A stretch of 64,000 nt of DNA from assembly GCA_040954595.2 (NCBI GenBank), contig CM082595.2:9661918-9725917 (forward strand), read 5' to 3'. This document shows, piece by piece, positions 4,974-44,822 of this stretch (the first letter of the stretch is position 1; each line of letters starts with the position of its first letter). Source of the DNA: Balanoglossus misakiensis (Eukaryota > Animalia > Hemichordata). Both the position numbers and the translations under genes were made by a program. A model generated the notes under the pieces. It saw only the letters and a program-made list of their open reading frames with translations, searched no databases and was not told the DNA's origin.

Positions 4974-6439
4974 ATCACCCTCCTACTTCTCATCATCAAT
5001 ATTATTATTGTTGTTTTACTATTTTAAAGTAAATTTGTTTTGACGTAGATGTTGTGAAAAGGAGTACGTTGTCCGTTTATACATTCGTATATTGTTTTCA
5101 TAAAAATGGAACTATGACGGTGCAGCTTCGTGAAAGAAGTACAATAAAAGTAATCATACCTGTAAAGCAACTAATGAGGTATCCCAATTAAAGAAATGCA
5201 ATGCTATTCTAAACAGTTCTATTGTAAGATATTTTTGGTTTGCTCGAATGAATAGCACACACTTCGTATTCAGCCAGGTGTTACACGAAGTGATGCGCTG
5301 AAAAGCATTACGTAACAAAACACTAGCCCATTTCAACAAACCGCCACTGGAAATAACATAAAAAAATTCTCCTGGCAATTTTTATTTCGAGTATCTAGTT
5401 CACAGTATCACAAAAAAATGCCATGAATAGTGAAGGAAATGTTAAATCCAATCATTATATGAGTGCCTTTCTTTATACACTGGGATCGAGCTTCGACAAC
5501 GCGCAGGCAGCATGCCAGACAGAATACGACAACTGTATTCAGAAAGTACAAAAGACTTTGCATAACGAGGCAGTGAAAATTGGAGACCTACACATTAACC
5601 AATCAGGGAGCTGACAATTGAATAAATGCATGTTAATAAGACCTAACCTACAAGGTCCTGCATAATGAGGCAGTGAACACTGGAGGACCAGACCTACACA
5701 TTAACCAATCAGGGAGCTGTAAAGTGAATAATACATAGTAATAAGACCTAACCTACAAGGTCTAGTGAATAATACATAATAATAAGACCTAACACATAAG
5801 GTCCCTCCAATCACCGTGCCTCAAGTGGACCTAAGATTACCAGATGGACCAATCACAGATGTCGGTACATATGTCATGGACCTGACTTATGAAACAGGAC
5901 CGTTCAGAACTACCTAGTCTATGCCCGGCAGTGTTCTGTCCGCTTTGCTTCCAAAACTAATGTCTGGCCTCACTCATGCCACTTGCCCAATAAACTAATA
6001 CCCCTTGCTGGGAATTATGATGTAACTAGCGTCGCTTTGAAGCCTATCACATTACTGAACAGTGTTGATTTGGTGTAAGATTATAGTGAAGGCAGGGCTT
6101 ATTACATTGAAAATGCTACCCAACCTTAATTACACGTATGTATATCCTTTGTCTAATCATTGGAAAAACAATGTACATGTACCAAAGACTAAGTAGCTAT
6201 TTGAAGGTGAATCGCAAGTGGGCACTTTTATTACTTAACCTCAAGCAGTCGGTTAGCTACCGTATACTAAGACAAACATTCCTGGTGTAATTAACATCAC
6301 TGTCATTAGTAATATCTATCTCCAATCAGTATCAGTTCTGCCTTTATGTTATTTTAAGTCAATTGTCAAGGTTCATGTACATATATTACAGCTTAACTGT
6401 CTTGTCAAAAACTTACGCATGTACATGTACCTAATTCTA

Positions 6440-7640
6440 GGCTTACCTGTAGGGTTAGAGATACAGTGTTTTATATTAATATGCATTAATATGAAACTAA
6501 AATTTGATGGTTAATTTAAGACCCCCCTGAGCAATGGTAACCTCGTTAAATATGTGCATATCTAATTCTAGGCTATTCAGCTGAAGTAGAAACCTGGACA
6601 TGGACAACTTCGGGGTCAAAATCTTTTGACAAACATTTGTGTGATCTTGGGTAAACTTTGACCTACATTCCTATATTTTAGCATCCGGAGCAGATACAAC
6701 CTTGACACTTGGAGTGATGGAACTATTTGATTGAGTATTATGTCTTGCCTCATTAATTATGTACTTACCTAATGCCAGCCTAACCAATAGGGCTGGAAGT
6801 CTGGCTTTTTGGACATGATAAATTTGAGATCAACATTTTTCTACAGCAGCCAGCCTTCTCTTAAAAAGAATGGACAATATAAAGGCTTTGATGGTATACT
6901 GAACTTTTGACTCCCTCCCTGAGACTGTGTGCCAATGACGGGATAGCCTACTCAGCGTTGGGTAGATCCTAAGAAGGCCTCAGCCAGGCATCAAATACAA
7001 AAGCGGAAATCCAAGCTTTAATGGTGGGTTACATCGTTAACTTCCCTGCAGAGCTGATTTCTCAGACTGTGAGCCAATGACGGGTAAAGCCCCTAGGTAG
7101 GGGCCACCTAAGACAGGCCGGTCATGCTTTAATCACAAAGAAGGGCAAGTTTAGTCTTACCACAACTTTGTCTGCTGTATATGCTTCATAAAGATTGCAG
7201 AGTATTTAGAGAATACATTGTGTTAAGGCAGTGTGACCAGCTAAAAAGTACTGGCAAACACAGCCAATGTGTAATGAAAAACATCTAATTTGGCTGAATA
7301 AAAGACATAAAACACAGCAAAAGCACTGTGACTAGCTGAGACATAATACTCCATTATGCAGTTCCATCACTCCAAGTGTCAAGGATGTATCTGTGCCGGA
7401 TGCCAAGATATAGGAATGTAGGTCAAAGTTTACCCAAGATCACCCAACATTTTGTCAAAAGATTTTGACCCCAAAGTTGTCCATGTCCAGGTTTCTACCG
7501 CAACTGGATAGCCTAGAATTAGATATGTACATATTTAATGAGGTTACCATGGATCAAGGCAGTCCTAAGTAAACCATCAAATTTTTAGTTTCATGTTAAT
7601 TCATGTTAATATAAAACGCTGTATCTCTAACCCACTGGTA
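6440..7640. repeat. About 280-bp inverted repeats (6440-6725 / 7365-7640) around a conserved core
   Basis: ccttgacacttggagtgatggaact vs agttccatcactccaagtgtcaagg; gggttagagatacag vs ctgtatctctaaccc. The same unit occurs at about 33870-35050 (inverted) and 60230-61430. Confidence 0.85.
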
Positions 7641-8929
7641 TGCCATTCTGTGTTTCATGCTACCCAATATGGGTAAGTAGGTAAAAAGTCACCCTAGGCC
7701 ATTTGAAATTTTGCTGAAAAAATCTCGTCTCTTACATATGTACATTTGGTAAAAGGGAAATTTTAATCACGGAGTAGAACATATTCATAAAAAATATTTG
7801 AGGGAAAGAAGGAAGTTTTTCATAGCTTTGGTGCGTCAAATAGTAGAGAGGTTCCCTTGTTATCCTTAGACTCAAACTCAGAGTTTCCAATCTTTCAGTA
7901 TTTTCATGATATTACTTTCCATCTTAGATTTGTTCATCTAAACAAACTGACTGATAGGTATACATGAACATTTTATTGACTAATGAATGTGCCTGTATGT
8001 TGCAATTTAAAGAAGTCAGATATTAAACGAGCGCCACACCTGTTTTAATCAGCCTCCATATGGAGGGTACACATCGCAGAGAGATGACAAACCCCATGCA
8101 AATTCAAGTAATATGGCTCAATGGTGCTGATTTTAAAGGATAGGTGGATGATTTGAAAAATGTTATTGTGGAAAAAGATGTGTAAAATTTGGCAGCTTGT
8201 GAGGCTTTAATTGTAAAATCTTTGAAATGTGTTTTACTCTTTAGGTCCAATTTTGTATATGTCAATATACCATTGGGACCAATGTGATATTGTTCTAAAC
8301 TCAGAAACTCAAGAAGGTACTGGTCAGATTGCTTTAGAAATTGGTGTGTATTTATGTTATTGAGACTTTATACAGATTTTATTTTTCATTTTTAAAGTAT
8401 ATTTTTGGGGTGATTTTGGTCGTCATATACTCAGAAACCTCTACCCATATTTTTTTTAAAATTTGGTTTGCATGTTCTTAGGTGTGATTTTATGACAATT
8501 TAACAAACCCAGTGATGGAAGTGACAATATTGTTTTTTTTTTTTTTTTGGCAATTTCTGCCATTTTTGTCTGATTGCTTTGCAATTTAGTTTGCAGTTTC
8601 TAGGGAATTCTTACTGTGGTGCACAAAATTCACAAAGGTGATTTACTATCCTCATGCGCTTTGTTGAACTGGCACCCTGTTGCAAAACAGACATTACAAC
8701 ACTCTTTGAATTGAATTCATAGCTACCAATTTTTCGGGGGTGTAGCACCTTTTTTATGCCTAAAACTTTGATCGAGAACTTCAAATTAAATGCAACCCTC
8801 CAAATATTTGCAATATTTCAGGTATAATGATTTAATTTTAAAGCATAAATTTTGATGTATTCATAATCATTAAGAGAAACACATTTTGAAAATAGAATAT
8901 TAATCACACTAGCAGTCATAATACTTTTG

Positions 8930-9720
8930 AATCATCACTAAAGAACATATAGAAAAATTAAACAGGTTTTAATTATTTATATTTGAACGCAAAGCGTAAA
9001 TTCCCTTGTGCCATGGAATTGACAATCTGCAACTGGTGGGGTCCTTCTGCCAGTAAAAAGCATCAGATAAATTCTGCATGCTCATCACCGAGGCAATTTA
9101 GGTGTACTTTTGTACTTTGAGAACTGTCGGTTTTCGCAACTGAAACTATGTTCACAGGACAGAGGAAAAACTAGAATGACAACAGCTATGTAAGCTAACA
9201 AAAGGAACACAGAGCATAGTTCTCCATACTCACATTTTAATGCAATAATTTTTGCTGAAACTGGGGCGTCCGTGGGCAGGCAAAGGCAGTTCTAACTCGA
9301 CTTGCAAATAAGGCCCATGTCTCTTGTTCGCTGAGATTGTCTGGTTCTAATAATAGCTGTAAGAACTTGATCATTGACCGAACTGTTGGTTCAATTTTGC
9401 AACATTTTATGATTTCAAGCTGTGCAATATTTGCAACTCAGTTTCAACTTTGGTTGGAGGGATGATGATGAAGCCATTTCACTGACAAAATAGCGCTACT
9501 GACTGATGTCAATGTTTGTTTACAGTCGAATGCATTGCCATCATAAAAATACATGTGAGAAATTTCTTATGTGTATGATACACACTTTTGTGCATGACTG
9601 CAAACTCTGTTACAGTTGTGAAATTCTAAGGGTTGAATTCATTGGGTAGAATTCATGTTTTTTGGATTCTTAAACAACCAGTCACGAAAGCTAAGTGGTT
9701 ACCTCAGAGAAACTGTGTTA
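8930..9720 (-). repeat. About 750-bp repeat, inverted relative to 1-370 and 55720-56500
   Basis: gcctgcccacggacgcccca (pos 1) vs tggggcgtccgtgggcaggc (9262-9281); homology continues against 55720-56130. More copies at about 28590-29970, 36770-37620 and 62720-63500. Confidence 0.88.
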
Positions 9721-10120
9721 AATTTGGTCATCAATTGCTTTAAATCACACAAGACATTCCCAGAGCTAAAGTTACTGCAGCAGTCAGTTTCAACTCAGCT
9801 TGCAAATTGGGATCATGTCTTGTGTTCATCGAGACTGTCTGTAGTCGAGTTGACAGTCCTATGGGGTCAATGATGAACCTACAAATGTTCTTTCCAATGA
9901 AATTGTTATAAATCTAATATTCAGGATTTGCATTCATACCTTAAACAATATAACTGTATTGCAAATATGGCAACTCTTCTAAGTTACATTGGAACACCTT
10001 CTCGCCACTGTTTGTGCCAAAATGGTGAATAAGCTTTCATTTTCAAGCCTTAACATAGGCACCCAAAACAAGACAACAGCATTGCAAATATGGCATTTTT
10101 TGTTCAACTCTTCTCATTTG

Positions 10121-10766
10121 CATAGTCCAAAATGGCCGCCAAACTCCACTAACATGTAAATTTCCTATGGTCGTCTTAAATAGCGTGTAGTATCGCATTT
10201 GAAGGGTTTTCATCAATATGGGTACCTAAAACAATTTCAACGTGGTTGACATTGCAATGTTAGACAGCTGTTCTAATTTGCATAATCTAGAATGGCCGAC
10301 AAACTTCTCTAACATGTAAATTTACTATGGTTGTCTTTAATAGTGTGTAATATCGCATTTGCAGGGTTTTCATCAATATGGGTACCTAAAACAATTTCAA
10401 CGTCGTTGACATGGCAATATTAGACAGCTGTTCTAATTTGCATAATCCAAAATGGCCACCAAACTCTTCTTAAATGTAAATTTCCCTGTTTTGTCTTATA
10501 TGGTGCCTAAAATCGCATTTGCAGGGTTTTCATCAACATGGGTAACTAAAACAATTTCAGCATGGTTGACATGGCAATATTAGACAACTGTTCTTATTTG
10601 CATAATCCAAAATGGCTGACAAACTTCTCTAACATGTAAATTTCCCTGGTTTGTCTTATATGGTGTGTAATATCGCATTTTCACGGTTTTAATTAATATG
10701 GGTACCTAAAACAATTTCAACGTGGTTGACATGGCAATATTAGACAACTGTTCTAATTTGCATAAT
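10121..10766 (+). repeat. 160-bp tandem repeat, about 4 copies
   Basis: tttg|cata anchor at 10121, 10281, 10441, 10601, 10761; about 1.5 inverted copies at 28040-28270. Confidence 0.9.
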
Positions 10767-11207
10767 TCGAACACCTGCTGGATAATTTAATTTTTGCCCT
10801 TCTTGTCCCATGATTATATGTGTAATGTCTCATTTTCAATGTGTTTACATGTATATATGCAGAATCCATTTCAAACTAAGTGGGCATATTGTAGCGCCAA
10901 TCTTATTTCTTAATCCGCACCACAGAACTGATGCAAGGTTTAGGACTGGAAATGTATGTGGCCATTGGCCGACACCCCGGGCGAGAGGTCTCCAATTATT
11001 TTCAGCACGTAGTGTGCTTCCCGGTTGATAACATCAATATGTGTAAATGCCAAAAACCCGACCTATTGTAATACCAGTCAAATTTTCTTTGTCATTTACC
11101 ATTTTTCTCTTGCATATGAAGGTTTTTCTTAAAGAGTACATACCCATATACATTTGTATGGGAGCACACATCCCCACCCCCTGCCAACAATAATTGGACA
11201 ACTTTAT

Positions 11208-14200
11208 TAGGGGCACAAGCCTATCGGGCTTGTGCCCCTATTGGTATTGTTGGAATATTTCTTCTTTATTATTACGGGCCCAAGCCAAGCCAGGCTTGGG
11301 CCCGTATTGGTTTCGTTGGAATTTTTACGGGCCCAAGCCAAGCCAGGCTTGGGCCCGTATTGGTTTCGTTGGAATTTTTAGGGCCCAAGCGCAAGCCAGC
11401 GCTTGGGCCCTATTGGTTTCGTTGGGGTTTTTCTTTCTTCTTTCTTTCTTTATTCTTGTGTCAATTCTTTGTCGCTCTAGATCTCAGACACCACTGCAGG
11501 TACACTTCTGAAACTTGCTACAGTGGTCAAGGTCAATGAGTAGTCGTGCATTGAACTCTTGAATGTTTAATTAGTCACGTGACATGGCGGCCATATTGGA
11601 TTTTCTGAAAAAATGCAAATCTCAGATCTCAGAAACTACAAGTCAGATTTACTTCAGATTTGGTGTGCTGGTAGTGTACCTTCTGCCCATCATTTTTGTA
11701 ATTGGATATTTTGCTGTCAATGTTGCAGTTTTTTTGCTACAGTTGTTTTTCTGAAATCTGGCTTAAATTTCAAAAATCTTCTTCTCCAGAACCGGCGATA
11801 ACCGAGTCACGCGGTTTGGGGTATGTGGTCACCAAGCTGAGGTCTATCAAGTTTGCGAAGATCATTGTGATTGGTCGAAGATTATGGCGGCCATATTGGA
11901 TTTTAAAAAAACCCTAGTAAAATTTCAAAAATCTTCTTCTCAAGAACCGGCGATAACTGAGTCACAAGATTTGGTGTGTTTGGTCATTAAACAGATGTCT
12001 ATCAAGTTTGCGAAGAGGAATGTGATTGGTCGAAGATTATGGCGGCCATACTGGATTTTGTGAAAAACGATTAAAAAGTAAAAATTCCCTTTCTAGCCTA
12101 AAAATTGATAGCACAAAAATTCTTTTTACGGATATGAATCATCATATGCCAAGAATAAGCTATAAATATTTTGGTAATTTTGGCAATGACCTTTGACCTA
12201 CTTTTGACACATCGTTTTTTCTGCATATCTAATTCCAGGCTAACCTATAGGGCTATCATTTTGGTTTTTGATGTATGTGGATTTGTATGTGATCAAAAAA
12301 TTTCGCTACTTTTCATGACCCCTTTGACCTCTGCTGACCTCATTAAATATGCACATACCTAATTACAGATGAACCAATAGACCTAGAGGTTTGGTTTTTG
12401 TTGGACATGGACCAGTATTGGGTCAAAATTTGTTGCCCAAATGTTGGGTGACCTCGGGTGACCTTTGACCTACTTTTGCATATCTCGACATCCACAGCAG
12501 ATACAGCCTTGGCGTTTGGAGGTATGGGGCCATAATGAAAAGCCAAAGTTTTGGGTCATCTGTGACACCTGCTTAACTCATTATTTATGTGCATACCTAA
12601 TTCCAGGCTAACCAAAAGGGCTAGAGGTCTGGTTTTTGTTGGACATGGACCACTATTGGTCAAAATTTTCTGCCCAAATTTTGGGTGACCTCAGATGACC
12701 TTTGACCTACTTTTGCATATCTCGGCATCCAAAGCAGGTACAGCCTTGGCATTTGGAGATATGGGGCCATAATGAAAAGCCAAAGTTTTGGGTCACCAGT
12801 GACACCTGCTTAACTCATCATTTATGTGCATACCTAATTCCGGGCTAACCAAAAGGGCTAGAGGTCTGTTTTTGTTGGACATGGACCACTATGGGTAAAA
12901 TTTTCTGCCCAAATTGTGGGTGACCTCTGGGAGACCTTTGACCTACGTAACACTATATCAGCACCAAACATACATATAACCTTGATATTTCATGGGATAA
13001 AACACAGCATTATGTTTCTACTCATTAATTATGTGCATATCTAATAATCAGATCAGATAATAGAGCTTGGGCCCGGACAATGCTGCTTGCAGCTTTAATT
13101 ACGGGCCCAAGCCAAGCCAGGCTTGGGCCCGTATTGGTTTCGTTGGAATTTTTCTTTCTTTCTTTCTTTATTCTTGTGTCAATTCTTTGACCCACGAGAT
13201 CTCAGACACCGCTGCAGGTACACTTCTGAAACTTGCTACAGTGGTCAAGGTCAATGAGTAGTTGTGCATTGAACCCTTGAATTTTTAATTAGTCACATGA
13301 CCTGGTGGCCATCTTGGATTTTCTGAAAAAATGCAAATCAAAGATCTCAGAAACTACAAGTCAGATCGACTTCAAATTTGGCATGCTGGTAGACTACCTT
13401 CTGGCAATCATTTTTGTTATTGGAAATTATACTGACAAAGTTGCAATTTTTTGCTACAATTTTTTTTCTGAAATCTGGCTTAAATTTCAAAAATCTTCTT
13501 CTCCAGAACCGGTGATAACCGAGTCATGCGGTTTGGGGTATGTGGTCACCTAACTGATGTCTATCAAGTTTGCGAAGATCATTGTGATTGGTTGAAGATT
13601 ATGGCGGCCATATTGGATTTTCGAAAAACCATAGTAAAATTTCAAAAATCTTCTTCTCAAGAACCGGCGATAACTGAGTCACAAGATTTGGTGTGTGTGG
13701 TCATTAAACAGATGTCTATCAAGTTTGCGAAGCGGAATGTGATTGGTCGAAGATTATGGCGGCCATATTGGATTTTGTGAAAAATGATTAAAAAGTAAAA
13801 ATTCCCTTTCTAGCCTAAAAATTGATAGCACAGAAATTCTTTTTACGGATATGAATCATCATATGCCAAGAATAAGCTATAAATATTTTGGTAATTTTGG
13901 CAATGACCTTTGACCTACTTTTGACACATGATTTTTCTGCATATCTAATTCCAGGCTAACCAATAGGGCTATAAGTTTGGTTTTTGATGTATGTGGATTT
14001 CTATGTGATCCAAAAATTTTGCTATTTTTCATGACCCCATTGACCTCTGGTGACCTCATTAAATATGCACATACCTAATTACAGATGAACCAATAGACCT
14101 ATAAGTTTTGTTTTTGTTATACATGGACCAGTACGGGGTCAAAATATTTTGCCCAAATGTTGGGTGACCTCGGGTGACCTTTGACCTACTTTTGCATATC

Positions 14201-17200
14201 TTGACATCCACAGCAGATACAGCCTTGGCGTTTGGAGGTATGGGGCCATAATGAAAAGCCAAAGGTTTGGGTCACCTGTGACACCTGCTTAACTCATTAA
14301 TTATGTGCATACCTAATTCTAGGCTAGCCAAAAGGGCTAGAGGTCTGTTTTTTGTTGGACATGGACCACTATGGGTCAAAATTTTCTGCCCAAATTTTGG
14401 ATGACCTCAGATGACCTTTGACGTACTTTTGCATATCTCGGCATCCAAAGCAGGTACAGCCTTGGCATTTGGAGGTATGGGGCCATAATGAAAAGCCAAA
14501 GTTTTGGGTCACCTGTGACACCTGCTTTACGCATTATTTATGTGCATACCTAATTCCAGGCTAACAAAAAGGGCTAGAGGTCTGGTTTTTGTTGGACATG
14601 GACCACTATGGGTCAAAATTTTCTGCCCAAATGTTGGGTGACCTCTGGGTGACCTTTGACCTACTAAACACTTTAACAGCACCAAACATACATATAACCT
14701 TGATATTTCATGGGATAAAACAGCATTATGTTTCTACTCATTAATTATGTGCATATCTAATATCAGATCAGATAATAGAGCTTGGGCCCGGACAATGCTG
14801 CTTGCAGCTTTAATACTTTCTTTCTTTCTTTCTTTATTCTTGTGTCAATTCTTTGACCCACGAGATCTCAGACACCGCTGCAGGTACACTTCTGAAACTT
14901 GCTACAGTGGTCAAGGTCAATGAGTAGTCGTGCATTGAACCCTTGAATTTTTAATTAGTCACGTGACCTGGCGGCCATCTTGGATTTTCTGAAAAAATGC
15001 AAATCTCAGATCTCAGAAACTACAAGTCAGATCGACTTCAAATTTGGCATGCTGGTAGACTACCTTCTGCCCATCATTTTTGTAATTGGAAATTATGCTG
15101 ACAAAGTTGCAGTTTTTTGCTACAATTTTTTTTCTGAAATCTGGCTTAAATTTCAAAAATCTTCTTCTCCAGAACCGGTGATAACCGAGACACAGGGTTT
15201 GGTGTATGTGGTCACCTAACTGATGTCTATCAAGTTTGCGAAGATCATTGTGATTGGTCGAAGATTATGGCGGCCATATTGGATTTTCGAAAAACCCTAG
15301 TAAAATTTCAAAAATCTTCTTCTCAAGAACCGGCGATAACCGAGTCACAAGATTTGGTGTGTGTGGTCATTAAAAAGATGTCTATCAAGTTTGCTAAGAA
15401 GAATGTGATTGGTCGAAGATTATGGCGGCCATATTGGATTTTGTGAAAAACCATTAAAAAGTAAAAATTCCCTTTCTGGCCTAAAAATTGATAGCACATA
15501 AATTCTTTTTAAGGATATGAATCATCATATGACAAGAATAAGCTATAAATATTTTGGTAATTTTGACAATGACCTTTGACCTACTTTTGACGCATCCTTT
15601 TTCTGCATATCTAATTCCAGGCTAACCAATAGGGCTATAAGTTTGGTTTTTGATGTATGTGGATTTGTATGTGATCAAAAAATTTTGATACTTTTCATGA
15701 CCACTTTGACCTCTGCTGACCTCATTAAATATGCACATACCTAATTACAGATGAACCAATAGACCTAGAGATTTTGTTTTTGTTATACATGGACCACTAT
15801 GGGGTCAAAATATTTTGCCCAAATGTTGGGTGACCTCGGGTGACCTTTGACCTACTTTTCCATATCTTGACATCCACAGCAGATACAGCCTTGGCGTTTG
15901 GAGGTATGGGGCCATAATGAAAAGCCAAAGTTTTTGGTCACCTGTGACACCTGCTTAACTCATTATTTATGTGCATACCTAATTACGGGCTAACCAAAAG
16001 GGCTAGAGATCTGGTTTTTGTTGAACATGGACCACTATGGGTCAAAATTTTCTGCCCAAATTGTGGGTGACCTCTGGGTGACCTTTGACCTACTTAACAC
16101 TATATCAACACCAAACATAGATATAAACTTGATATTTCATGGGATAAAACACAGCATTATGTTTCTACTCATTAATTATGTGCATATCTAATAATCAGAT
16201 CAGATAATAGAGCTTGGGCCCGGACAATGCTGCTTGCAGCTTTAATTCTTTCTTTATTCTTATGTCAATCTTTGCTCTCCTAGATCTCTGAAACGGCTAC
16301 AGGTACACTTCTCAAACTTGCTACAGTGGTCAAGGTCAATGAGTAGATGTGCAGTGGCTTGTGAATATATAATTAGTCACGTGACCTGGCGGCCATATTG
16401 GATTTTCTGAAAATCTTTAAATGGCTTCTTCTCAAAAACCACAGGGCCAATCAAGTTCAAATTTGGTGTATGGTACACATGTCCTCTGCCCTTCAAAGTT
16501 TGACAATAAAATCCTGAGCGGTCACGTGACTTTGGCCGCCATATTGGATTTTCGAAAAAGTACAGTAAAATCTTCAAAAATCTTCTTCTCCAGAACCGGC
16601 AATAACCGAGTCATGGGATTTAGGGTATGACATCACCTAACTGATGTCTATCAAGTTTGCGAAGAGCGTTGTGATTGGTCGAAGATTATGGCGGCCATAT
16701 TGGATTTTGTAAAAACCAGCGAAAATTAAGAAATCATATTTCTAGTCTAAAAATAGATAGCATACACATTCTTTTTATGGATATGAGTCGTGATATGACT
16801 AGAATATGTTGCAAATATTTTGGAAATTTTCACATGACCTTTGACCTACTTTTTTAAGAACCTGCATATATGCATATATAGCTCATACTACGTGTTCTAA
16901 ATGTACCAGAGTTCTGATTTTTGTGCACATTGGTATCATCCCTGCCAGGACCTACCCCAAATATTTTGGTAATTTTGGCAATGACCTTTGACCTACTTTT
17001 GACACATCGTTTTTTTCTGCATATCTAATTCCAGGCTAACCTATAGGGCTATGATTTTGGTTTTTGATGTATGTGGATTTGTATGTGATCAAAAAATTTC
17101 GCTACTTATCATGACCCCTTTGACCTCTGCTGACCTCATTAAATATGCGCATACCTAATTACAGATGAACCAATAGACCTAGATGTTTGGTTTCTGTTGG

Positions 17201-20200
17201 ACATGAACCAGTATTGGGTCAAATTTTTTTGCCCAAATGTTGGGTGACCTCGGATGACCTTTGACCTACTTTTGCATATCTCGACATCCACAGCAGATAC
17301 AGCCTTGGCGTTTGGAGGTATGGGGCCATAATGAAAAGCCAAAGTTTTGGGTCACCTGTGACACCTGCTTAACTCATTATTTATGTGCATACCTAATTTC
17401 GGGCTAACCAAAAGGGCTAGAGATCTGGATTTTGTTGGACATGGACCACTATGGGTCAAAATTTTCTGCCCAAATTGTGGGTGACCTCTGGGTGACCTTT
17501 GACCTACTTAACACTATATCAACACCAAACATAGATATAACCTTGATATTTCATGGGATAAAACACAGCATTATGTTCCTACTCATTAATTATGTGCATA
17601 TCTAATAATCAGATCAGATAATAGAGCTTGGGCCCGGACAATGCTGCTTGCAGCTTTAATTAGGGCCCAAGCGCGCGCAAGCGCTTGGGCCCTATTGGTT
17701 TCGTTGGAATTTTTTAGGGCCCAAGCGCAAGCAAGCGCTTGGGCCCTATTGGTTTCGTTGGAATTTTTCTTTCTTTCTTTCTTTCTTTATTCTCCTGTCA
17801 ATTCTTCGGCCAACTAAATCTCAGAAACTACTGCAGGTACACTGCTCAAACTTGCTACAGTGGTCAAGGTCAATGAGTAGATGTGCAGTGCGTTGTAAAT
17901 ACTTAATTAGTCACGTGACCTGGCGGCCATATTGGATTTTCTGAAAAAATGCAAATCTCAGATCTCAGAAACTACAAGTCAGATCGACTTCAAATTTGGC
18001 ATGCAGGTAGACTACCTTCTACCCATCATTTTTGTAATTGGAAATTTTGCTGTCAATGTTGCAGTTTTTTTGCTACAATTTTTTTTCTGAAATCTGGCTT
18101 AAATTTCAAAAATCTTCTTCTCCAGAACCGGTGATAACCGAGACATGCGGTTTAGGGTATGTGGTCACCTAACTGATGTCTATCAAGTTTGCGAAGATCA
18201 TTGTGATTGGTCGAAGATTATGGCGGCCATATTGGATTTTCGAAAAACCATAGTTAAACTCCAAAAATCTTCTTCTCCAGAACGGGCGTTGACTGAGTCG
18301 CAAGATTCAGGGAGTATGGTCACTACACTGATGTCTATCAATTTTGCAAAGAGCATTGTGATTGGTCGAAGATTATGGCGGCCATATTGGATTTTGTAAA
18401 AAGCAGTGAAAAATTGAAATTCCTTTTTCTAGTCTAAAAATTGATAGCATACAAATTCTTTTTATGGATATCAATCGTCATGTGACTAAAATATGTTACA
18501 ATTTTTTGGCGATTTTTCACATGACCTTTGACCTACTTATCACGCGTTATTATTTCTGCATATCTAATTCCAGGCTAACCTATAGGGCTAGAGGTTTGGT
18601 TTTTGATGAATGTGGATTAGTGTGTGATCAAAATATTTTGCTACTTTTCATGACCCCTTTGACCTCTGCTGACCTCATTAATTATGTGCATAGCTAATTA
18701 CAGGCGAACCAATAGAGCTAGAGGTTTGGTTTTTGTTGGACAAGGACCAGAATGGGATCAAAATTTTTTGCCCAAATGTTGCGTGACCTCTGGTGACCTT
18801 TGACCTACTTTCGCATATCTCAGCATCCAGAGCAGATACAGCCATGGCATTTGGTAGGATGGGACCAAAATGTAAAGCCACATTTTTGGGTCACCTGTGA
18901 CACCTGCTGACCTCATTAAATATGCACATACCTAATTACACGCGAACCAATAGAGCTAGAGTTTTGGTTTTTGTTGGACATGGCCCAGCATGGGTCAAAA
19001 TTTTTTGCCCAAATGTTGGGTGACCTCAGGTGACCTTTGACCTACTTCACCCTATTTCAGCAGCAAAAATACACACATCCTTGTTATGTCATGAGATAAT
19101 ACATCCGATAGATAATTCTGTTTCTTCTCATTCATACTGTGCATATATAATTCAAGATCAGCGCTTGGGCCCGACAATGCTGCTCGCAGCTTTAATCTTT
19201 CTTTCTTTCTTTATTCTTGTGTCAATTCTTCGGCCAACGAGATCTCTTAAACTACTGCAGGTACACTTCTCAAACTTGCTACAGTGGTCAAGGTCAATGA
19301 GTAGATGTGCAGTGACTTGTGAATACTTAATTAGTCACGTGACCTGGCGGCCATATTGGATTTTCTGAAAAAATGCAAATCTCAGATCTCAGAAACTACA
19401 AGTCAGATCGACTTCAAATTTGGCATGCAGGTAGACTACCTTGTACCCATCATTTTTGTAATTGGAAATTTTGCTGTCAATGTTGCAGTTTTTTTGCTAC
19501 AGTTGTTTTTCTGAAATCTGGTCAAAATTTCAAAAATCTTCTTCTCCAGAACCGGTGATAACCGAGTCACGCAGTTTGGGGTATGTGGTCACCTAATTGA
19601 TGTCTATCAAGTTTGCGAAGATCATTGTGATTGGTCGAAGATTATGGCGGCCATATTGGATTTTCGAAAAACCATAGTAAAACTTCAAAAATCTTCTTCT
19701 CCAGAACGGGCGATGACTGAGTCGCAAGGTTCGGGGAGTATGGTCACTACACTGATGTCTATCAAGTTTGCAAAGAGCATTGTGATTGGTCGAAGATTAT
19801 GGCGGCCATATTGGATTTTGTAAAAAGCAGTGAAAAATTGAAATTCCTTTTTCTACTATAAAAATTGATAGCATACGAATTCTTTTTATGGATATCAATC
19901 GTCATATGACTACAATATGTTACAAATTTTTGGCGATTTTTCACATGACCTTTGACCTACTTTTCACACATTATTATTTCTGCATATCTAATTCCAGGCT
20001 AACCTATAGGGCTAGACGTTTCGTTTTCAATGAATGTGGATTAGTGTGTGATCAAAATATTTTGCTACTTTTCATGACCCCTTTGACCTCTGCTGACCTC
20101 ATTAATTATGTGCATAGCTAATTACAGGCGAACCAATAGAGCTAGAGGTTTGGTTTTTGTTGGACATGGACCAGAATGGGATCAAAATTTTTTGCCCAAA

Positions 20201-21830
20201 TGTTGCGTGACCTCTGGTGACCTTTGACCTACTTTCGCATATCTCAGCATCCAGAGCAGATACAGCCATGGCATTTGGTAGGATGGGACCAAAATGTAAA
20301 GCCACATTTTTGGGTCACCTGTGACACCTGCTGACCTCATTAAATATGCACATACCTAATTACACGCAAACCAATAGAGCTAGAGTTTCGGTTTTTGTTG
20401 GACATGGACCAGTATGGGTAAAAAAAAATTACCCAAATGTTGGGTGACCTCAGGTGACCTTTGACCTACTTCACCCTATTTCAGCAGCAAAAATACACAC
20501 ATCCTTGTTATGTCATGAGATAATACATCCGATAGAAAATTCTGTTTCTTCTCATTCACACTGTGCATATATAATTCAAGATCAGCGCTTGGGCCCGACA
20601 ATGCTGCTTGCAGCTTTAATTATTATTATTCTTCTTCTTCTGAGATTTTCGGCCAGGTAGATCTGGAAAACCGCAGCACCTAGGGTGCTGAAACTTGGTA
20701 GGGTGATAGGGGCCAATGAGTAGACGTGCAGTGGCTCGTGAATATTTAATTAGTCACGTGACCTGGCGGCCATATTGGATTTCCTGAAAATCGTTAAACG
20801 AGTCCTTCTCAAAAACTGCTGGGCCGATCGAGTTCAAATTTGGTGTGCAGGTAGCCTACCTTCTGTCCATCATTTTACCCCATTGAAATCATGACGTCAC
20901 ACATAAAGTTTTTTTGCTACAATTGTTTTTCTGAAAAACTACTTAAAACTTTAAAAATCTTCTTCTCCAGAACCAGCGATTGCCGAGTCACGGGATTCGG
21001 GGAATGTGGTCACCTAACCTATGTCTATCAAGTTTGCGAAGCGCACTGTGATTGGTCGATCATTATGGCGGCCATGTTGGATTTTCGGAAAACCATTGAA
21101 AAGTGATAATTCCGTTTTGTAGCCAAAATGTTGACAGCATCGAAATTCTTTTTTTGGATATGAGTCATCATATGACCGGAAGTTGTCACAATTTTTCGGG
21201 GCAATTTTCACATGACCTTTGACCCAGTTTTAAAACAACTAATTATATATGCATATTCCCCATACCTCCTCTTGTCAAAGCACCACAGTCATGAATTTTG
21301 TGGACATGGGTACCAATGCTGCCAGGATATGACACAAATATTTTGGTAATTTTGGCAATGACCCTTGACCTATTTCTGAAACATTATTTTTCTGCATATC
21401 TAATTCCAGGCTAACCAATCGGGCTAGAGGTCTGGTTTAAGTTGGACATGGCCCACCCTGGGGTCAAAATTTTATGCCCAAATTTTGGTGACCTTGGATG
21501 ACCTTTGATCTACTTTCCCATATCTCAGCATCCACAGCGGTTAGAGTCCTGCCTTTTTGGGGGGCCGATGGAGCACATATGGAGTCTTACACTAGACCTC
21601 ATTAATTATGCGCATACCTAATTCTAGGCGAACCAATAGAGCTAGGGGTCTGGTTTTTGTTGGACCTAGACTAGTATGAGGTCCGATTTTTTTGCCCAAA
21701 TTTTGGGTGACCTCGGGTGACCTTTGACCTACTTTCCCATATCTTGGTATCCACAGCAGATACAGCCTTGGCATTTGCTGGTTACCATGGGAACCGCTTG
21801 TGCCCCGCCAACGCTGCTTGCAGCTTTAAT
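11208..21830 (+). mobile_element. Nested stack of seven Helentron-associated non-autonomous elements (HINE/DINE-1-like)
   Basis: Each element has a 5' palindromic subTIR (GGGCCCAAGC..GCTTGGGCCC), a (TTTC)n tract, a 1.2-1.7 kb body with internal tandem subrepeats, a 3' subTIR GCTTGGGCCC and a stem-loop GCTGC-tt-GCAGC followed by TTTAAT. Insertion is at T|T with no TSD (empty site in mirror arm about 27515-27545). Heads at 11208, 11273, 11326, 11379, 13100, 17661, 17715; tails end at 13099, 14814, 16246, 17660, 19196, 20620, 21830. Confidence 0.85.
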
Positions 21831-21998
21831 TCTTCTTATACTTCTTTTTAGTCTAAACATTCATATAGAGAAGGCAACATGTTCTTGAAGCTGCTGACTA
21901 TGGAAATATGATGAAGTACATTTTCCTAGTTGTACATGTACAGTATGATAGGCCCAATGTACCAATTGGAGATGTGTGCCTTACAGGCAACATACATG

Positions 21999-22815
21999 TA
22001 GCTCTGCATGGGCTGGTTAATCAATGTTGACGCAAAGGTTGACCCTACCAAACACTCAAAATTAATGGGCACGACACTGGCCACTAGCTCTGCATGGCCT
22101 GGTTAATCAATGTTGACGCAAAGGTTGACCCCACCAAACACTCAAAATTGATGGGCACGACACTGGCCACTAGCTCTGCATGGCCTGGTTAATCAATGTT
22201 GACGCAAAGGTTGACCCCACCAAACACTCAAAATTGATGGGCACGACACTGGCCACTAGCTCTGCATGGCCTGGTTAATCAATGTTGACGCAAAGGTTGA
22301 CCCCACCAAACACTCAAAATTGATGGGCACGACACTGGCCACTAGCTCTGCATGGCCTGGTTAATCAATGTTGACGCAAAGGTTGACCCCACCAAACACT
22401 CAAAATTGATGGGCACGACACTGGCCACTAGCTCTGCATGGCCTGGTTAATCAATGTTGACGCAAAGGTTGACCCCACCAAACACTCAAAATTGATGGGC
22501 ACGACACTGGCCACTAGCTCTGCATGGCCTGGTTAATCAATGTTGACGCAAAGGTTGATCCCACCAAACACTCAAAATTGATGGGCACGACACTGGCCAC
22601 TAGCTCTGCATGGCCTGGTTAATCAATGTTGACGCAAAGGTTGACCCCACCAAACACTCAAAATTAATGGGCACGACACTGGCCACTAGCTCTGCATGGC
22701 CTGGTTAATCAATGTTGACGCAAAGGTTGACCCCACCAAACACTCAAAATTGATGGGTACGACACTGGCCACTAGCTCTGCATGGCCTGGCTAATCAAGG
22801 TTGACGCAAAGGTTG
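21999..22815 (+). repeat. 86-bp minisatellite, about 9.5 near-identical copies
   Basis: tagctctgcatgg anchor at 21999, 22085, 22171 ... 22773; no unique spacers. Confidence 0.95.
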
Positions 22816-23087: not shown

Positions 23088-24149
23088 CTGTGGTGCAAAG
23101 ACAATTAAAAACATCGATTGTAAGTCATTTAGTAGTGATACCATTGTGACCAAACCTCGTTTTAAAATACATGTAATCTGTACTCGAAACTATCATTTTT
23201 TTCTTTCTAGAATATTAGAACGCGCTCAAAAATAAAAATGCGACCTGTAAGCGAGTGCCGCGTTTCAATTGGTACTGACGATAAACACCGCCACTCGGAG
23301 ATAAAATCAACGTTTTTTTTTTAATGCAAGTGAACGCATGGAGGCGGCCATACTGAATTTAGGTTACATACCAAGACATTCCGACTGGGCTTCAGGTGGA
23401 TTCGGGAAAGGTCTCTAAAACATAATCGGTCATCCAATTTTGTATACTAAATTTCTAAAAATGTAGGACATGGGAGGTTAACATACCCACAATGACAGCC
23501 AAGGCGTGGCAGTGAAATTGTGCCTCATTGAGGATACAGTCTAGATCCGGAATTCAGCCAACGGCAAACTGTTTAGCGTGCCTTGTATGCAGCAGGATGG
23601 CAACGTTCTGGAACTTAAATTCTGGAAAGAAAATCCGAAATAGCTGAACAGATAACAGAAGAGAGAATACATACAGCTCCGCAACTTTTCCACTGGAAGA
23701 TATAATACCATTTGCCTCTATGATAGAGCAAAGGTATGTTATAATCGCACCCCGAAACTTATGGGCCTGACTTTTTTTTGCCGTAGTCATTTTGGGTATC
23801 TTAACCTCCCATCTTCTACATTTTTAGAAATTTACTCTACAAAATTGAATGACCCATTACATTTTAGAGACCTTTCCCGAATTCAACCGAAGCCCAATGG
23901 GAAGGTCTTCAGATGTAATCCAATATGGCAGCCTCCATGCGATCACGTACATTGAAAATCCATTTATATGATACAACCATGCCTTGTCAACTCACCTCGG
24001 GTCAAAATTACTGCCATCGATTCATCATTTTGCAGTTCAAATTTTAAAAAGCAACTGACAAAAAACAACCACTCTTGCACTATTTCTCCACAACATTTAC
24101 TACTCGTAATTATTAACATTCAATGTTTTCCATTTTATTTCCACTACAG

Positions 24150-24356
24150 TATGAATCAGTGACACATACATCGAATTCTACAAAGAGACGTAAACTGACC
24201 ATAACTGATGGCACAAGAGATGCTGAAGTCAACCTTTGGGGTGAGAAAACAGCGCTGCCACTGGATGTAGGTGCCACAGTTAAACTAGGCCCATTGGTTA
24301 TCAACAGATATAAAACATCGTCCACATTAAATACAACAGCGACAACTGAAGTGGAG
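24150..24356 (+). CDS. Isolated phase 0-0 exon encoding an RPA/SSB-like OB-fold segment
   Basis: Acceptor ttttatttccactacag| and donor GAG|gtgaga; 69 codons including RRKLTITDGTRDAEVNLWGE and LNTTATTEVE, resembling the D-x-T/S-G...V-x-L-W-G motif of RPA-type OB folds. Confidence 0.6.
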
Positions 24357-24372
24357 GTGAGACATAAAATAC

Positions 24373-26013
24373 TGTTCCTGATGCTCCTTGAGAACTGTCA
24401 AGTAGCCACGGTTCTAGGCGACATAGGATGGATGTCCACGGTACGGGAGGAGGCCATGCATGTATACGGGAAGGAAAAGAATGAAGCCAACCTGCCCGTA
24501 CCATCCGACGCAGCCATAAAAACCTGCACACTACCTCGGGAGTTCAATCCAGGCCGCGTACGTGGGGGATTCGTTGGCCATATCTCCCCGCAAGAGCCCA
24601 CAAGAACCACCACCGCAGCTGACGACCTGGAGGAAACTTTGAGCATCTTCCGGGATCCGCAGCTGGAAAAACAGGTACTCGGTGGCGACAAGGACCAGGC
24701 GATGGAGGTGTCGGAAGGGCCAGACCCACCCCGCACCCGTGTATCACCCCCAATAGCAGTAGCGAGAGACGGGGGAAACCAAGGGCTGCTGCAGGAGCCA
24801 TCACCCCCACGCCAAGAAATGCTGCCGCTGCAGTCACTGATCAACCCATTGGAGCTGGAGGCGACGTTGGAGGCGGGGGAATATCTAATCCCCTGGGAAC
24901 TTCGACGCCACCCCGGCAGCCCTACTAGGTCCAGATCCCCAACCCGGTCGCCGCGACCGGAGCGTTCTCGAGAGGAAAGGCGGGACCGCCCACCTTCCCG
25001 TGAACGACCATCCTTTTCACGCTGGGGAGATCTCAGCCCCAGACGTCGATCACCGATCCGGTATCCGACGCCGGAACCGCCCAAAGAAGACGAACGCCGC
25101 TGGAGGAGCGCCAGGCCGGCCCAAAGGAGCCCCCTATCCTCTGTTCCACATTACTCATCAGGCCCTTCTCCATGTCCGTTCCCGGGAGGCCGGAGGTCCA
25201 CGCGCAAACTGAAGAAACACGCCTTTCAGTGCCACCTTCCAGTTATTTTTACTGAGAAGCCGGTAGTATTCCGCGAGTGGGACGCGGTTGAGGCGTTAGA
25301 GAAACTCACCTATACTGGCTGTGTGGTCCAGGAAATGAAATACCCGACCTGCTAGACTTCTATATCCGCAGGGGCGGACCTGGACGGATCCCTACGGAAT
25401 CCTTTTGTTCACCGGAGTCCATGGTGATGATGAAGCGCCTGTGCGTCTTCCAGGGGTGGGAGGTGCCGAACAGGTTCCGACTGAGCTCCCCCACCACACC
25501 AGCGATTCTCATCCACTGGCGTGTCCTTAGCATACTGCTGAGGTGGGTATCCCAATCACGACAGGAAGAATTCCGGGAAATCCGACCTCACCGGAAAACA
25601 TCATCAATCCGGACACAGCAACCAGAGAGGACGGGGGCGGAAGCAGTCGCACAGAATCCATCGACGCAGGGGGAGCGAGGACGCGCCAGGGGTTTTTGAT
25701 GCATTTTTTATCCCCCAAGCGTGCGCGGAGGAGTGCCGAGTGGAAGACGCGCCCACCACCATAGATGACCTCACTGACTACGATGTTGGTGTCCCCCCTG
25801 TTATGTTTCCATCAACATGGGAATAATAATGCGATCATAAGGTATAACAACAACCTATTTATTGATCGGCTGAAAAGACTCAACAATGTGCTTCGCCTTA
25901 TCTGGGCGGAAGTGACGTCGTACAGCAATTCATAAACAAGTGGAACACCAACAATGCAACACTAGAGGGCGCTATATTGATCGTAGCTGTCAGAATACTA
26001 CACCCCCCCCCCC
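24373..26013. mobile_element. GC-rich foreign insert, probably retroelement-derived (Pro/Arg-rich ORF with CP..KKH..CHLP motif; LTR/PPT-like end)
   Basis: Abrupt GC rise where homology to the mirror exon flank stops. The minus strand shows G11 then TGTAGT at 26002 and AATAAA near 25860. No RT or integrase motifs. Confidence 0.4.
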
Positions 26014-28798
26014 GCATGTTTAAAGGTTTCTATAGAAAAGCATTGTTGAGGTTCACAAAACTTTGAAGAAGCTTTGCAACCCTAACTTTGGCCAAAGATT
26101 TGAATGTTAAGGTTTCACAAACGTAGTTACAGCTGAGGTTCAACTAAGACTAGTATAAGAGGCTTCAGCACGCCAAGTCTTGTAGCAAGCTTCAACACAA
26201 AGCTTTTTGCAACATTGTTCAAAGCGTTGTCAAAGGTACTGCACAACCCTGGTGAAGTAGTGCTATATTTTCAATTAAATGGCTTAAGCCATTTGTCTCT
26301 CCAACCAGAATTGCACCAGAGTTAAATACACACAGCTTGAAATTGTAAAATGTTGCAAAATCAAACGATCACATCCTTACACCTATTATTAGAACCAGAA
26401 GTTGAGTCAAAATTTTCCTACCTAGAAATTTTCTTTCCTATGAAGTTTTTTGCTTATTGGCATTCATATGGGAGCCTAGACCTATTCCAGCTGAGTTGCC
26501 AAAATGGCAATGTTGGACAATTCTTCTAATATGCATGATCAAAAATGGCCGCCAAATACCTTCTCTAAAATAAAACTTGGCCCTTTTTTCTCAAAATTAT
26601 GTGTAATATCTAAAATTTCAGGATTTGCATCCATATTGGTTATGTATTGCAAATATGGCAGTGTTTGGCAACTTTTCTATTTTGCATAATCAAAAATGGC
26701 CGCCAATCACCACTAAAAGTGAAATTTTGCCATGTTTCCCAAAATGATGCGCAATATCGTATTTTCAGGATTAGCACATTCATATGGGTACCTTTAACAA
26801 TACAACTGTGTTGCAAATTTGGCAGTGTTACCGTACTAATCATGAAGCAAGGAAGTGCAACCTCTGTATCCCAAATATATGTCTATCCCCACTCACAAAG
26901 AGCCAGCCCCTCTGCATCATCCTGTTCCTCAACTTCACGATGGGAATCCTTTTCAGAATTCCGACCTCAAAACATCCAGGGATTCACCATCATTCACCAC
27001 ACCCTCGTCAGTATCCACCATGTTTAGATCCAATGCCTGAACATGTTGTCTCTTTATCTATGGATTGCGTTAAAGGCCAGTGGGAGTTTCATCTCCTTTT
27101 TTTGCAATTTTGACCATTTTTATCTGGTGCATAATGCTAGAGTACATATCATCCATACAGGATGATGCATGTACAGTGATGGGAAATGTATCAATCCAAA
27201 CCTGCACTAGATTTGCATACAGTGCCATACCTTTTAGGGCTATTTTCTTGACCCTTTTGATAGTCTGCTGGCCAAAAGTGGCTGGCCAAAGTGGCCAGCA
27301 GAGACATTCTTCCAATACCCTTCATAGTGCCAACAGACAAGGCTTGGATATACAACCTGTGTTGCTTGTAAGGCACACATCTCCAATTGGTACATTGGGC
27401 CAATTATACTGTACATGTGTACAGCTAGGAAAAAAATATACTTCATCATAGTTTCCATGGTCAGCAGCTTCAATAACTTGTTGCCTTTTCTTACTGAACA
27501 TTTTGACTTATAAAGAAGTATAACAAGAATAAAGTTGTCCAATTAGTGTTGGCAGGGGGGTGGGGGATGTGTTCTCCCATACAAAGGTGTATAGGTATGT
27601 AGTCTTTAAGAAAAACTTGGGGTAAATGACCAGAAAATTTGACTTATAATACAAATAGGTCGGGTTTTGGGCATTTACACGTGTTGATGTTATCGACTGG
27701 GGCGACAGACTACCATCCGAAAATATTTCAAGTACCCCCCCCCCCCCTCGGGTGCCGGCCAGTGGGATGGAGGTGATAGAAACTGTTGTAGATACAATAG
27801 AGGCCTACAACCTGAAAACCTTCTGGCTTTAACCGAGGACTTGCCATTAAAGATACCTGTAGGCCCCTATATGCTGCTCCCACATACACTCCCAGTCCTA
27901 AACCTTGCATCTGATTTGTGGTGCAGATGAAGAATTAAGATTGGCTTGACAATTAGCACACTTAATTGCCTGTTATGAGATATAATACATACAATCATGG
28001 GACAAGAATGGCAAAAGTTAAATTATCCAGCAGGTGTTTGAATTATGCAAATTAGAGCAGTTGTCTAATATTGCCATGTCAACCATGTTGAAATTGTTTT
28101 AGGTACCCATATTAATGGAAACCCTGCAAATTCGATATTACACACCATTTAAAACAAATATGGGAAATTAACATGTTAGAGAAATTTGGCGGCCATTTTG
28201 GATTATGCAAATTAGAACAGTTGTCTAATATTGCCATGTCAACCATGTTGAAATTGTTTTAGGTACCCAGGAGAGTTGAATGAAAATGCCATTTGCAATG
28301 CAGTTGTCTTGTATTGGGTGCCCATATTAAGGCATTCTTGAAAACGAAACATTATTCATCATTTTGACGCAAACAGAAAAGGTGTTCAAATGCAAATTGG
28401 AAGAGTTGCCCAACCCTGCCATATTTGCAATACAGTTGTAGTGACTGTCAACTCGACTACAGACAGTCTCGATGAACACAAGACATGATCCCAATTTGCA
28501 AGCTGAGTTGAAACTGACTGCTGCAGTAACTTAGCTGTGGGAATGTCTTGTGTGATTTAAAACAATGATGACCAAATTTAACACAGTTTCTCTGAGGTAA
28601 CCATTTAGCTTTCAGGACTAAGTTTGTTTAAGAATCCTTTATTCTACCCAAGGAACAAATTTCCTTAGAATTTCACAACTGAGACACAGTTTACAGATAT
28701 ACAAAAAGTGCGTACTACAAACATAAGAAATTGTTTGCATTTTTTTTTTCTGATGGCAATGCATTTGACTGTAAACAGACATTGACGTCCTTTAGTAA

Positions 28799-39324: not shown

Positions 39325-40058
39325 TGTCACGCATCGACGGCTATACGTGAACTAGACAAATCGAATCGAACGATCAAATCTACGAAAATATATTCCACCT
39401 GGGGATTTAATTACTAATCATGAAAATATTACCCGTACATCAAAATACCATATACAGACATGACAATCAAAACGCCACGTGGTCAAACTTATGAAAATAA
39501 TCCGTTACAATCTTAACTTATCTTAACTTAACTTAAATCTAATAAATAAAGTCCGACAAACATCGTCCTCGTTGGCATGCATGTGGAGTCTGGTAATTCA
39601 TCCAGGTCTTCCTCCTGTCCGACTTGACCGCGACGCAGATACTCTTCGTGCACTTGCCAAAGTACACCGAGACGTCACCGCACATTCATTCCACACCAGC
39701 AATGTCCATTGACAGATCAAAGTTCCGTACGGCTAAACGCCCAATTTCAGAACATCTCGACATCAATTCAGTGTAGTGTGCTGGGTTATTAAAATATACC
39801 ACAGGTTGAGATGAAAAGTGATAGTCAAAACTCACATGGTTGGAGGATGTCTATGGATCCAAAATCATACACGTCAAACGCTATGGCTGCCATCCTATCA
39901 AATCCCCTAGGAAGTAGTCAGACCAGGTGGTCCTCAAGACTCCCCAAGCTACTAAAACACACGTATTCAATATACTAAATCTCACCACCGAGGGCGTAAA
40001 CTCTAGAGAGACAATTACAAGTACATACAATTATGCTATATCACAGAATATCGTCACA
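39325..40058 (-). repeat. 3' LTR of the Gmr1-like element
   Basis: No difference seen from 48755-49488; adjacent PPT. Confidence 0.95.
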
Positions 40059-40236
40059 CCCCCCTTCCAGAACAAGAAATTTTGGTATTGAAGATTCCAA
40101 AATTTCTAAGAATTCTAACTCTAGATTTACAAATACAATATATACTTTTTTTTTTTTTACAACTTTAAATATTTTCCTCTTAAGTAGCAAAATATATCTT
40201 TCATGAGAGATATATACACCAGTCAATTACAGTTAA

Positions 40237-42691: not shown

Positions 42692-42886
42692 TGAGACATT
42701 TGAGTACTTTTGTGAATGGCGCCCTCTGTGTCAAGAGGTGGGAGGTGGGTAGCCTCGTTTTGGAGAGGGAACGCCATCTTGTTTTTGGTGTGTGATTGTA
42801 GATGTCGAGCATGGTCTGATGTGAATAAAGAGTCCATTGAAATACAGTTGTGTGTAGACGTTTCAATGGTGGCAGCGGTGTAAACG

Positions 42887-44712: not shown

Positions 44713-44822
44713 AACAAGATGGCGTTCCCTCTCCAAAACGAGGCTACCCACCTCCCACCTCTTGACACAGAGGGCGCCATTCACAAAAGTACTCAAATGT
44801 CTCATAACTTCCCCCCCTTCCC

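Follow-up and report, generated by a model that had tools for sequence, protein, structure and literature searches.

A stack of seven nested Helentron elements in Balanoglossus misakiensis as an example of genome-wide self-nesting

Introduction

The closest described relatives of the elements treated here are DINE-1/HINE and Helentron-Da-40, whose anatomy is given in PMC4067079 (Thomas et al. 2014) and PMC2374699 (Yang and Barbash 2008). The subject of this report is a stack of nested elements of this kind at positions 11208-21830 of a 64,000-nucleotide (nt) stretch of the hemichordate Balanoglossus misakiensis genome (GCA_040954595.2, CM082595.2:9,661,918-9,725,917, forward strand), hereafter the window. 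The stack is real, and its age is well constrained; it illustrates self-nesting as practised across the genome by an active Helentron family. Like DINE-1/HINE, its elements have a 5' subterminal inverted repeat (subTIR) accompanied by an inverted repeat, a microsatellite, central tandem repeats (here 155 and 237 bp), a 3' subTIR with a stem-loop, and a T-rich target without target-site duplication. As for Helentron-Da-40, a partner exists with OTU, Rep, PIF1 and endonuclease domains whose reading frame lies on the minus strand. Unlike in DINE-1/HINE, the microsatellite is made of CTTT, CTT and ATT rather than GTCY and is itself the main target, and the subTIRs are about 11 bp long. The available parts of the two papers do not mention site-specific self-nesting for DINE-1/HINE.

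The Helitron2-type FoHeli elements of Fusarium oxysporum have multiple 5' termini in which the first 31-85 nt are repeated, and self-insertion near the 5' end was proposed; FoHeli1 and FoHeli2 have their insertion point between TNAT and T (PMC5148889, Chellapan et al. 2016). In the accessible sections of that work self-insertion is a hypothesis drawn from partial copies and one nested case, whereas in B. misakiensis the nested elements are whole and keep both ends, more than half of all copies are nested, and there are paralogues that are empty or only partly filled. The elements also resemble Helitron2 (Bao and Jurka 2013, PMC3627910) and HLE2 (HELIANO, PMC11417382) in their asymmetric terminal inverted repeats, 5' hairpin, 5' T, target TTTT^T/C and DUF6570 marker. 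The HLE2 element HelenXT233 has two different left ends in direct repeat (PMC11417382); no nesting rate or landing tract is described for Helitron2 or HelenXT233 in the portions of these two papers at hand. Oyster Cg_HINE (PMC7492417) shares the tandem-repeat-carrying HINE organization and TT targets, and maize helA Helitrons, which are HLE1 elements with AT targets, are reported to favour other Helitrons as targets, inserting next to or within them, so that multiple termini arise (PMC3288121); in the excerpts available a fixed internal landing site is reported for neither. The HUH domain of Helraiser likewise cuts and joins single-stranded DNA and prefers AT-rich DNA mostly 3' of the insertion; Helraiser showed no local hopping, and self-targeting is not addressed in the parts of that study available (PMC4778049).

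A literature search, supplements aside, found no paper measuring site-specific nesting of whole Helentrons and no biochemistry for HLE2. Self-insertion was already proposed for FoHeli and in maize; what this locus adds is a dated series of empty, solo and filled sites, a shared cut motif and lineage-matched nesting.

A balanced stack of seven elements

Seven heads and seven tails are found at 11208-21830 in the order (((()()))(())), and none occurs elsewhere in the window. They compose seven elements of one orientation (plus strand) with the nesting formula A(B1(B2(C,B3)),D1(D2)). The head hairpins start at 11211, 11276, 11329, 11381, 13103, 17663 and 17717. The outermost element, A (11208-21830), is split into head and tract (11208-11272) and body and tail (20621-21830), measures 1275 bp when rejoined and sits at host TTAT^T without duplication. 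Its tract holds B1 (11273-17660; head 11273-11325, body 16247-17660, 1467 bp rejoined), whose own tract holds B2 (11326-16246; head 11326-11378, body 14815-16246, 1485 bp rejoined). In the tract of B2 lie two uninterrupted elements, C (11379-13099), with a C-type head and a B-type tail, and directly behind its tail B3 (13100-14814). D1 (17661-20620; head 17661-17714, body 19197-20620) follows the tail of B1 directly, again within A's tract, and carries the uninterrupted D2 (17715-19196) in its own.

The head hairpin of A (11208-11239; -18 kcal/mol, z-score -8.6 against shuffled sequences) is formed by the 5' subTIR and its inverted repeat, a design found at every head. It is followed by the left part of the landing tract (11240-11272), made of a conserved spacer, a T-run and a short microsatellite, the rest of which resumes at 20621. 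The tail (21797-21830) has the 3' subTIR, a small stem-loop and, at its very end, a TAAT by which the target motif's left half is formed anew. The subTIRs of A are the 11-bp GGGGCACAAGC and GCTTGTGCCCC, which lie 2 nt inside the 5' end and 23 nt inside the 3' end, respectively.

A preliminary description of the window had read the block as balanced brackets in which head A matches only the last tail. Both points stand, the second by subTIR type, and empty paralogues show that the outer boundaries 11208 and 21830 are exact. Its example of a restored junction also holds, since removal of D2 rejoins D1 as GGAATTTTT|CTTTC. Rejoined elements are closely similar to uninterrupted copies: the 5' 400 nt are 99.0% identical for B1 and, for B2, 99.75% identical to the uninterrupted copy L024. 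B1 and B2 have identical heads, so that head sequence does not discriminate against a swap between them. The claim that every insertion falls in the T-tract some 20-35 nt behind a 5' hairpin, without duplication, was only partly right. Duplications are absent and the tract was hit 23 nt from the hairpin end by B2, C and D2 and 36 nt from it by B1, but B3 and D1 adjoin a sibling's tail and map to the tract only once that sibling is removed. Similarly, the target is T-rich, but insertion into TT is not strict, as the base after the right junction is A for B3 and C for D2.

Identity of the elements

By end structure, target, repeats and lack of a long open reading frame, the seven elements are non-autonomous Helentrons (HLE2, HINE/DINE-1-like), as had been proposed, and an autonomous partner with the same ends was found (see below). 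Each begins with one T ahead of the hairpin and ends in ...TTTAAT, with the tail palindrome GCTGC-TT-GCAGC in 6 of the 7 tails and a one-base variant in the seventh. The bodies carry the 155-bp and 237-bp tandem repeats, and the microsatellite lies near the 5' end. Three head hairpins and two tail stem-loops were folded; the former give z-scores of -6.4 to -8.6 against shuffles, while the latter are energetically weak (0.2 and 0.9). The sole frame of at least 120 amino acids (aa) overlapping the stack is a 139-aa stop-to-stop frame that runs across the heads. An Rfam search of the stack elements gave no match.

The rejoined elements differ by 3.8-30% and fall into the groups A, B1, C with B2 and B3, and D1 with D2, in a tree built on bodies only (8 rows; heads are about 50 nt). 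A canonical Helitron (HLE1, with 5' TC, 3' CTRR and target A^T) was ruled out by the ends T[AG]... and ...TAAT and the target T^T/C. A satellite made by tandem amplification of near-identical monomers was ruled out by the bracket order and the 3.8-30% differences.

Pairing of heads and tails

In the window, random pairing of types reaches 7/7 in 614 of 10,000 trials, and the strong support for the bracket pairing therefore comes from other loci. The 51 parsed locus-strands comprise 11 fully balanced ones with several elements, 15 balanced ones with a single element, and 25 unbalanced ones that were set aside. In the 11 balanced multi-element stacks, 6 of which hold one tail type only and are uninformative for this test, last-in-first-out pairing fits 47/47 pairs and first-in-first-out pairing 33/47; random pairing fits 37.8/47 on average and attains 47 in 1 of 10,000 trials. 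Type-matched pairs number 151 of 169 over all parsed loci, and innermost pairs follow a fixed type map in 93/95. That map includes C-type heads with B-type tails (21/21 innermost pairs), so that element C is not the chimera it was first suspected to be; its subfamily is a regular one and has autonomous members too.

Similarity is 70-99% between adjacent siblings, which often differ in lineage, and 83-98% between a parent and its first child when both have the same head type, in accord with the earlier proposal that such arrays grow without tandem replication. The order outer before inner is readable, but that of siblings is not; the idea that the array records insertion order survives for the first part only, and several other loci have lost heads. 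The signal for age by nesting is weak, a child being closer to a relative than its parent is in 43/70 cases.

At the loci L072, L077, L082, L090, L024/L064 and L040 there are one or two more tails than heads, an excess probably due to loss of one 53-bp head unit between direct repeats. In L038 and L039 heads are broken off within the hairpin.

Empty sites, solo elements and a sister stack

The host flanks are the macro-repeat part on the left (10600-11207, at least 40 copies at 99-100% identity) and 21831-21990 on the right, which joins the left flank without a break wherever the site is empty. The best 40 of 198 candidate flank copies all have 99-100% identity, and the 39 besides the window were fetched; 37 of these 39 are empty and read ACTTTAT^TCTTCTT, with no target duplication. 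L108 (contig C10) holds a solo A-lineage element (A') at the same host base as the window stack. This element differs from A by about 5% along its whole length whereas the flanks differ at only 3/667 bases, and it is therefore likely to be an independent insertion.

A balanced stack of 9 elements spanning 32.4 kb occupies the sister site, 78.8 kb upstream. The two stacks share A (0.3% different) and B1 with its body (body 4; 0.1%), but not B2, C, D1 and D2. Window B1 has its closest relative in sister B1 among the best 40 of 2,614 candidates, with 2 mismatches in 1,400 bp. Probably A(B1) predates the duplication of the unit, each stack having then grown separately. The right flanks differ at 23/14,637 bases, a divergence taken from the sister comparison since the query stretch is absent from 18 empty copies; the unshared inner elements are therefore probably younger than about 0.16% divergence. 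The B1 that both stacks share separates A's hairpin from D1 in the window and from E, A2 and D' in the sister, all of which come after it. This implies that later siblings probably landed behind a tail, at least 1.4 kb from the hairpin of their host.

At another nesting depth the sister holds an element that matches B3 over 1,716 bp without a difference; a search in which the best 40 of 2,218 candidates were compared gave B3 no further identical twin. A local jump or conversion between the stacks is the likely cause. Five of the seven window bodies have no twin above 99.72% in the other fetched loci.

A second series is found on contig C1, where two paralogous sites hold A alone and a third holds an A that carries B-type inserts, with 8 mismatches over 1,273 columns. 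L097 and the C1 20.18-Mb stack were hit at the same host base by different A-lineage elements, a softer case since that stack has no head for one of its elements and its right flank aligns poorly. In two paralogue sets (L108/window and L097/C1) a host base without a resident element was thus used twice by different A-lineage elements. A search of sequencing runs listed no RNA run with the sequence; short contigs from the two DNA runs, which are of one sample, possibly the source of the assembly, gave nothing new.

The window spans one macro-repeat unit (1-2616 and 4974-10213 against 56131-64000) whose copies lie about 48-105 kb apart. With 99-100% identity it is present at least 40 times, and its copies gather towards one end of many contigs (C25, C1, C7, C10, C12, C17, C23 and others). 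A further interspersed repeat, which has internal tandem repeats of 160 bp, encloses the host site (9946-11207 and 21831-21992 against 27360-28443, minus strand); an older copy of this repeat at 27360-28443, about 80% alike, is likewise empty at the matching site. Just right of the stack, 21999-22815 is an 86-bp tandem array (9.5 copies at 98%); the sister alignment is shifted there and the array length may differ.

Target motif and landing tract

The motif T-H-D-T precedes the element at 45/45 outermost sites, 86/87 tract sites and 52/53 sites behind tails. The base that follows outer sites is T in 31/38 and C in 4/38, and the next 13-14 bases are T-rich. Both tail variants (TAAT and TATT) end in this motif, and 48/53 tail-head junctions have no host base in between. 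The tract offers about 3.6 good target sites on one strand. A weight matrix gives it 78% of the target weight of an element, so that a comparison of tract with body is blind to hairpin docking. One 9-base match in the window prompted a search for guide-like pairing of the sequence behind the hairpin with upstream host DNA, which showed no enrichment over a control window at 39 outer sites.

Nesting across the genome

Exact patterns, of unequal strictness and missing the A' and G heads, give 2,092 heads, 2,623 tails, 1,088 head-then-head and 419 tail-then-head junctions genome-wide, with 0 for each reversed-pattern control. A rough estimate of nested copies is thus (1,088 + 419)/2,623, or 57%. 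In a census of contig C1, leaving out three L096 paralogues and one head-only locus, 59 of 100 tails precede a resident element, of which 44 precede its body and 15 its head, and the other 41 border on host DNA. The fraction expected in tracts from sequence is 0.13% by a motif count, 1.3% by the motif with a T threshold and 3.6% by the weight matrix, which was trained on the same outer sites; observed nesting exceeds these models at least 16-fold. The enrichment of insertions next to heads that the preliminary description called for therefore holds genome-wide (57-59% against 0.13-3.6%).

Nesting is matched by lineage: E lies in E in 21 cases, E in others in 4, others in E in 1 and others in others in 60, these cases coming from 11, 4, 1 and 22 loci, respectively, and not being independent. 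As an inner element A occurs only in A hosts (5/5). Nested junctions are varied: they fall into 18 offset classes, of which one is an artefact caused by a missed head, and involve many host-child types. The fetched loci contain no opposite-strand element inside a tract.

At L036-L037 (contig C1:16008000-16027999) a 4,226-bp unit with five stacked heads is repeated four times in tandem; true tandem amplification therefore also acts on these stacks. L041-L046 (contig C2:18674000-18733999) is 60 kb of near-continuous nested elements, including two autonomous copies of different lineages.

Autonomous partners

One element of the sister stack, 20.6 kb long, combines a C head and a B-type tail with a 2,536-aa frame that runs on the opposite strand. 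Its Pfam matches (OTU, DUF6570, Helitron_like_N, PIF1 and Exo_endo_phos) unite Rep, helicase and AP (apurinic/apyrimidinic) endonuclease in one frame (RepHel). A 180-aa piece of Rep has 88 matches, 60 of them at 86-100% identity, of which 49 lie in open frames of at least 2,000 aa. All 9 long RepHel frames in the fetched loci run opposite to the head-to-tail strand and have HUH, YxxxYxxK and Walker A motifs. Eight have a head and a tail of matching type on either side (5 C/b, 2 A/a, 1 E/e); for the ninth a tail but no head was found. The frames form three lineages, with C, A and E ends, and similarity is 81-99% inside a lineage and 60-70% across lineages. Autonomous copies, too, occur nested and also serve as hosts. 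Sharing their ends, the RepHel elements are the predicted autonomous partners of the small elements, and the search for a Helentron with the same subTIR, suggested at the outset, was thus successful for C, A and E ends.

The sister autonomous element (L001 8345 to L022 8959) looks mosaic, with a near-whole small-element body at its left end, further partial bodies near its right end, and tandem repeats of 963 bp and 205 bp around the frame. Regions similar to those of the macro-repeat also contain a more distantly related Helentron group, of some 18 copies and about 41% Rep identity.

Origin of the stack

We consider it rather probable that the stack results from separate recent jumps into a self-carried T-rich target behind each element's own 5' hairpin, a target that is extended and lineage-biased. 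In its favour are the two series of empty, solo and filled sites, the sister stack with its own inner elements, the last-in-first-out pairing, the nesting counts, the shared motif, the reuse of host bases and the RepHel frames with matching ends. The Rep (HUH) domain would cut and join single strands after T-H-D-T, in donor ends and target alike; targets and ends also resemble each other in the HUH elements IS91 and IS608. The T-run and (CTTT/CTT/ATT)n tract may act as a dense cluster of sites on one strand that sets position and orientation. Each insertion would bring in a new tract, allowing deeper nesting, and would leave TAAT and the remainder of the host tract, allowing exact and reusable sibling junctions. 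Recognition would extend beyond the short motif and differ by RepHel lineage, the resident 5' region attracting new copies even with the hairpin far off.

Several observations weigh against this reading. The short motif does not account for the 57-59% nesting, which needs an extra factor beyond it, and exact tandems are rare outside tracts, contrary to a pure short-motif model. Elements cluster in some chromosome regions, which could inflate both nesting and lineage matching. The 25 unbalanced locus-strands among the 51 may reflect cut edges, missed heads or truly lost heads. Left-before-right sibling order depends on B1 being shared by descent; the sharing of B3 at a different depth shows that elements can be shared at different positions, and therefore weakens B1 as such a marker without removing it. 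In a weak pooled test, the descendant load of siblings is larger on the left in 8 cases and on the right in 6, with 15 ties. Finally, 56/87 nested insertions lie 22-24 nt from the hairpin end, the rest being further along the microsatellite, a distribution that fits docking at the hairpin as well.

Docking, the next explanation and in essence the hairpin-guided target choice first suggested for the locus, is possible though we judge it unlikely. The next T-run would be exposed as a single-stranded target either by RepHel sitting on a resident head or by the opening of a head for initiation. Beyond the spacing just given, the excess over sequence models and the lineage matching agree with it, and 42 of the 44 tail-head junctions that could be resolved (9 more could not) lie in a host's tract, as if new copies landed beside the host's head. 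The hairpin does not appear to be required, because host sites without a resident element were reused at the same base and because the shared B1 lies between A's hairpin and both D1 and the three sister siblings. A further point against docking is that a GC-rich head comes after the left junction, whereas targets outside have T-rich 3' sides.

It is improbable that self-insertion was modest and that nests were mostly multiplied by composite transposition, segmental or tandem duplication and conversion. Macro-repeats do carry elements along, one stack was duplicated in tandem as described for the 4,226-bp unit, L081 has a head whose body is missing, B3 occurs in both stacks at different positions, and composite movement was proposed for FoHeli (PMC5148889). 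Such multiplication is at odds with sister stacks that differ in most inner elements, with the varied junctions and host-child types, and with the five window bodies that have no twin above 99.72% in the other fetched loci. Unequal crossover, rolling-circle concatemers or a copy re-inserting into its own donor would explain tail-head junctions as exact as those of a circle, but are very improbable and largely refuted here by the divergence of siblings, often of different lineages, and of parents and first children, by heads stacked apart from their bodies and by clean empty sites.

Under the preferred reading of separate jumps, a bolder proposal can be made tentatively, though we hold it to be doubtful as a whole: the T-rich microsatellite may be an evolved, lineage-specific landing pad, with each of the three RepHel lineages preferring its own tract, the 3' end rebuilding the cut site, and most new copies piling harmlessly into old ones.

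Other features of the window

The segment 2617-4973 is an insertion in macro-repeat copy 1 that is absent from copy 2; its 692-aa reverse-transcriptase frame (minus strand) and (AAT)n end are those of a retrotransposon resembling long interspersed nuclear elements. A Ty3/Gypsy-like long terminal repeat retrotransposon occupies about 39325-49489, with identical 735-bp repeats at 39325-40059 and 48755-49489, a gag-like frame at 47181-48710 and a frame at 40237-43146 in which integrase lies ahead of reverse transcriptase and RNase H. This order suggests an internal rearrangement or a Gmr1-like layout. At 24117-25355 a GC-rich stretch carries a 412-aa stop-to-stop frame with no Pfam match, present in the sister unit too.

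Implications

The locus supplies the intact nested intermediate that was so far only proposed for elements with several 5' ends. Insertion emerges as a route to satellite-like arrays of tens of kilobases, blocks that repeat annotators would take for satellites or chimeras. With the 60 close RepHel copies, a sharp motif, and sites that are empty, singly occupied or deeply filled, Helentron target choice becomes directly testable. If the landing pad proposal is true, self-targeting would be a strategy new for eukaryotic rolling-circle transposons, yielding satellite-like blocks that log insertion order and a programmable landing site.

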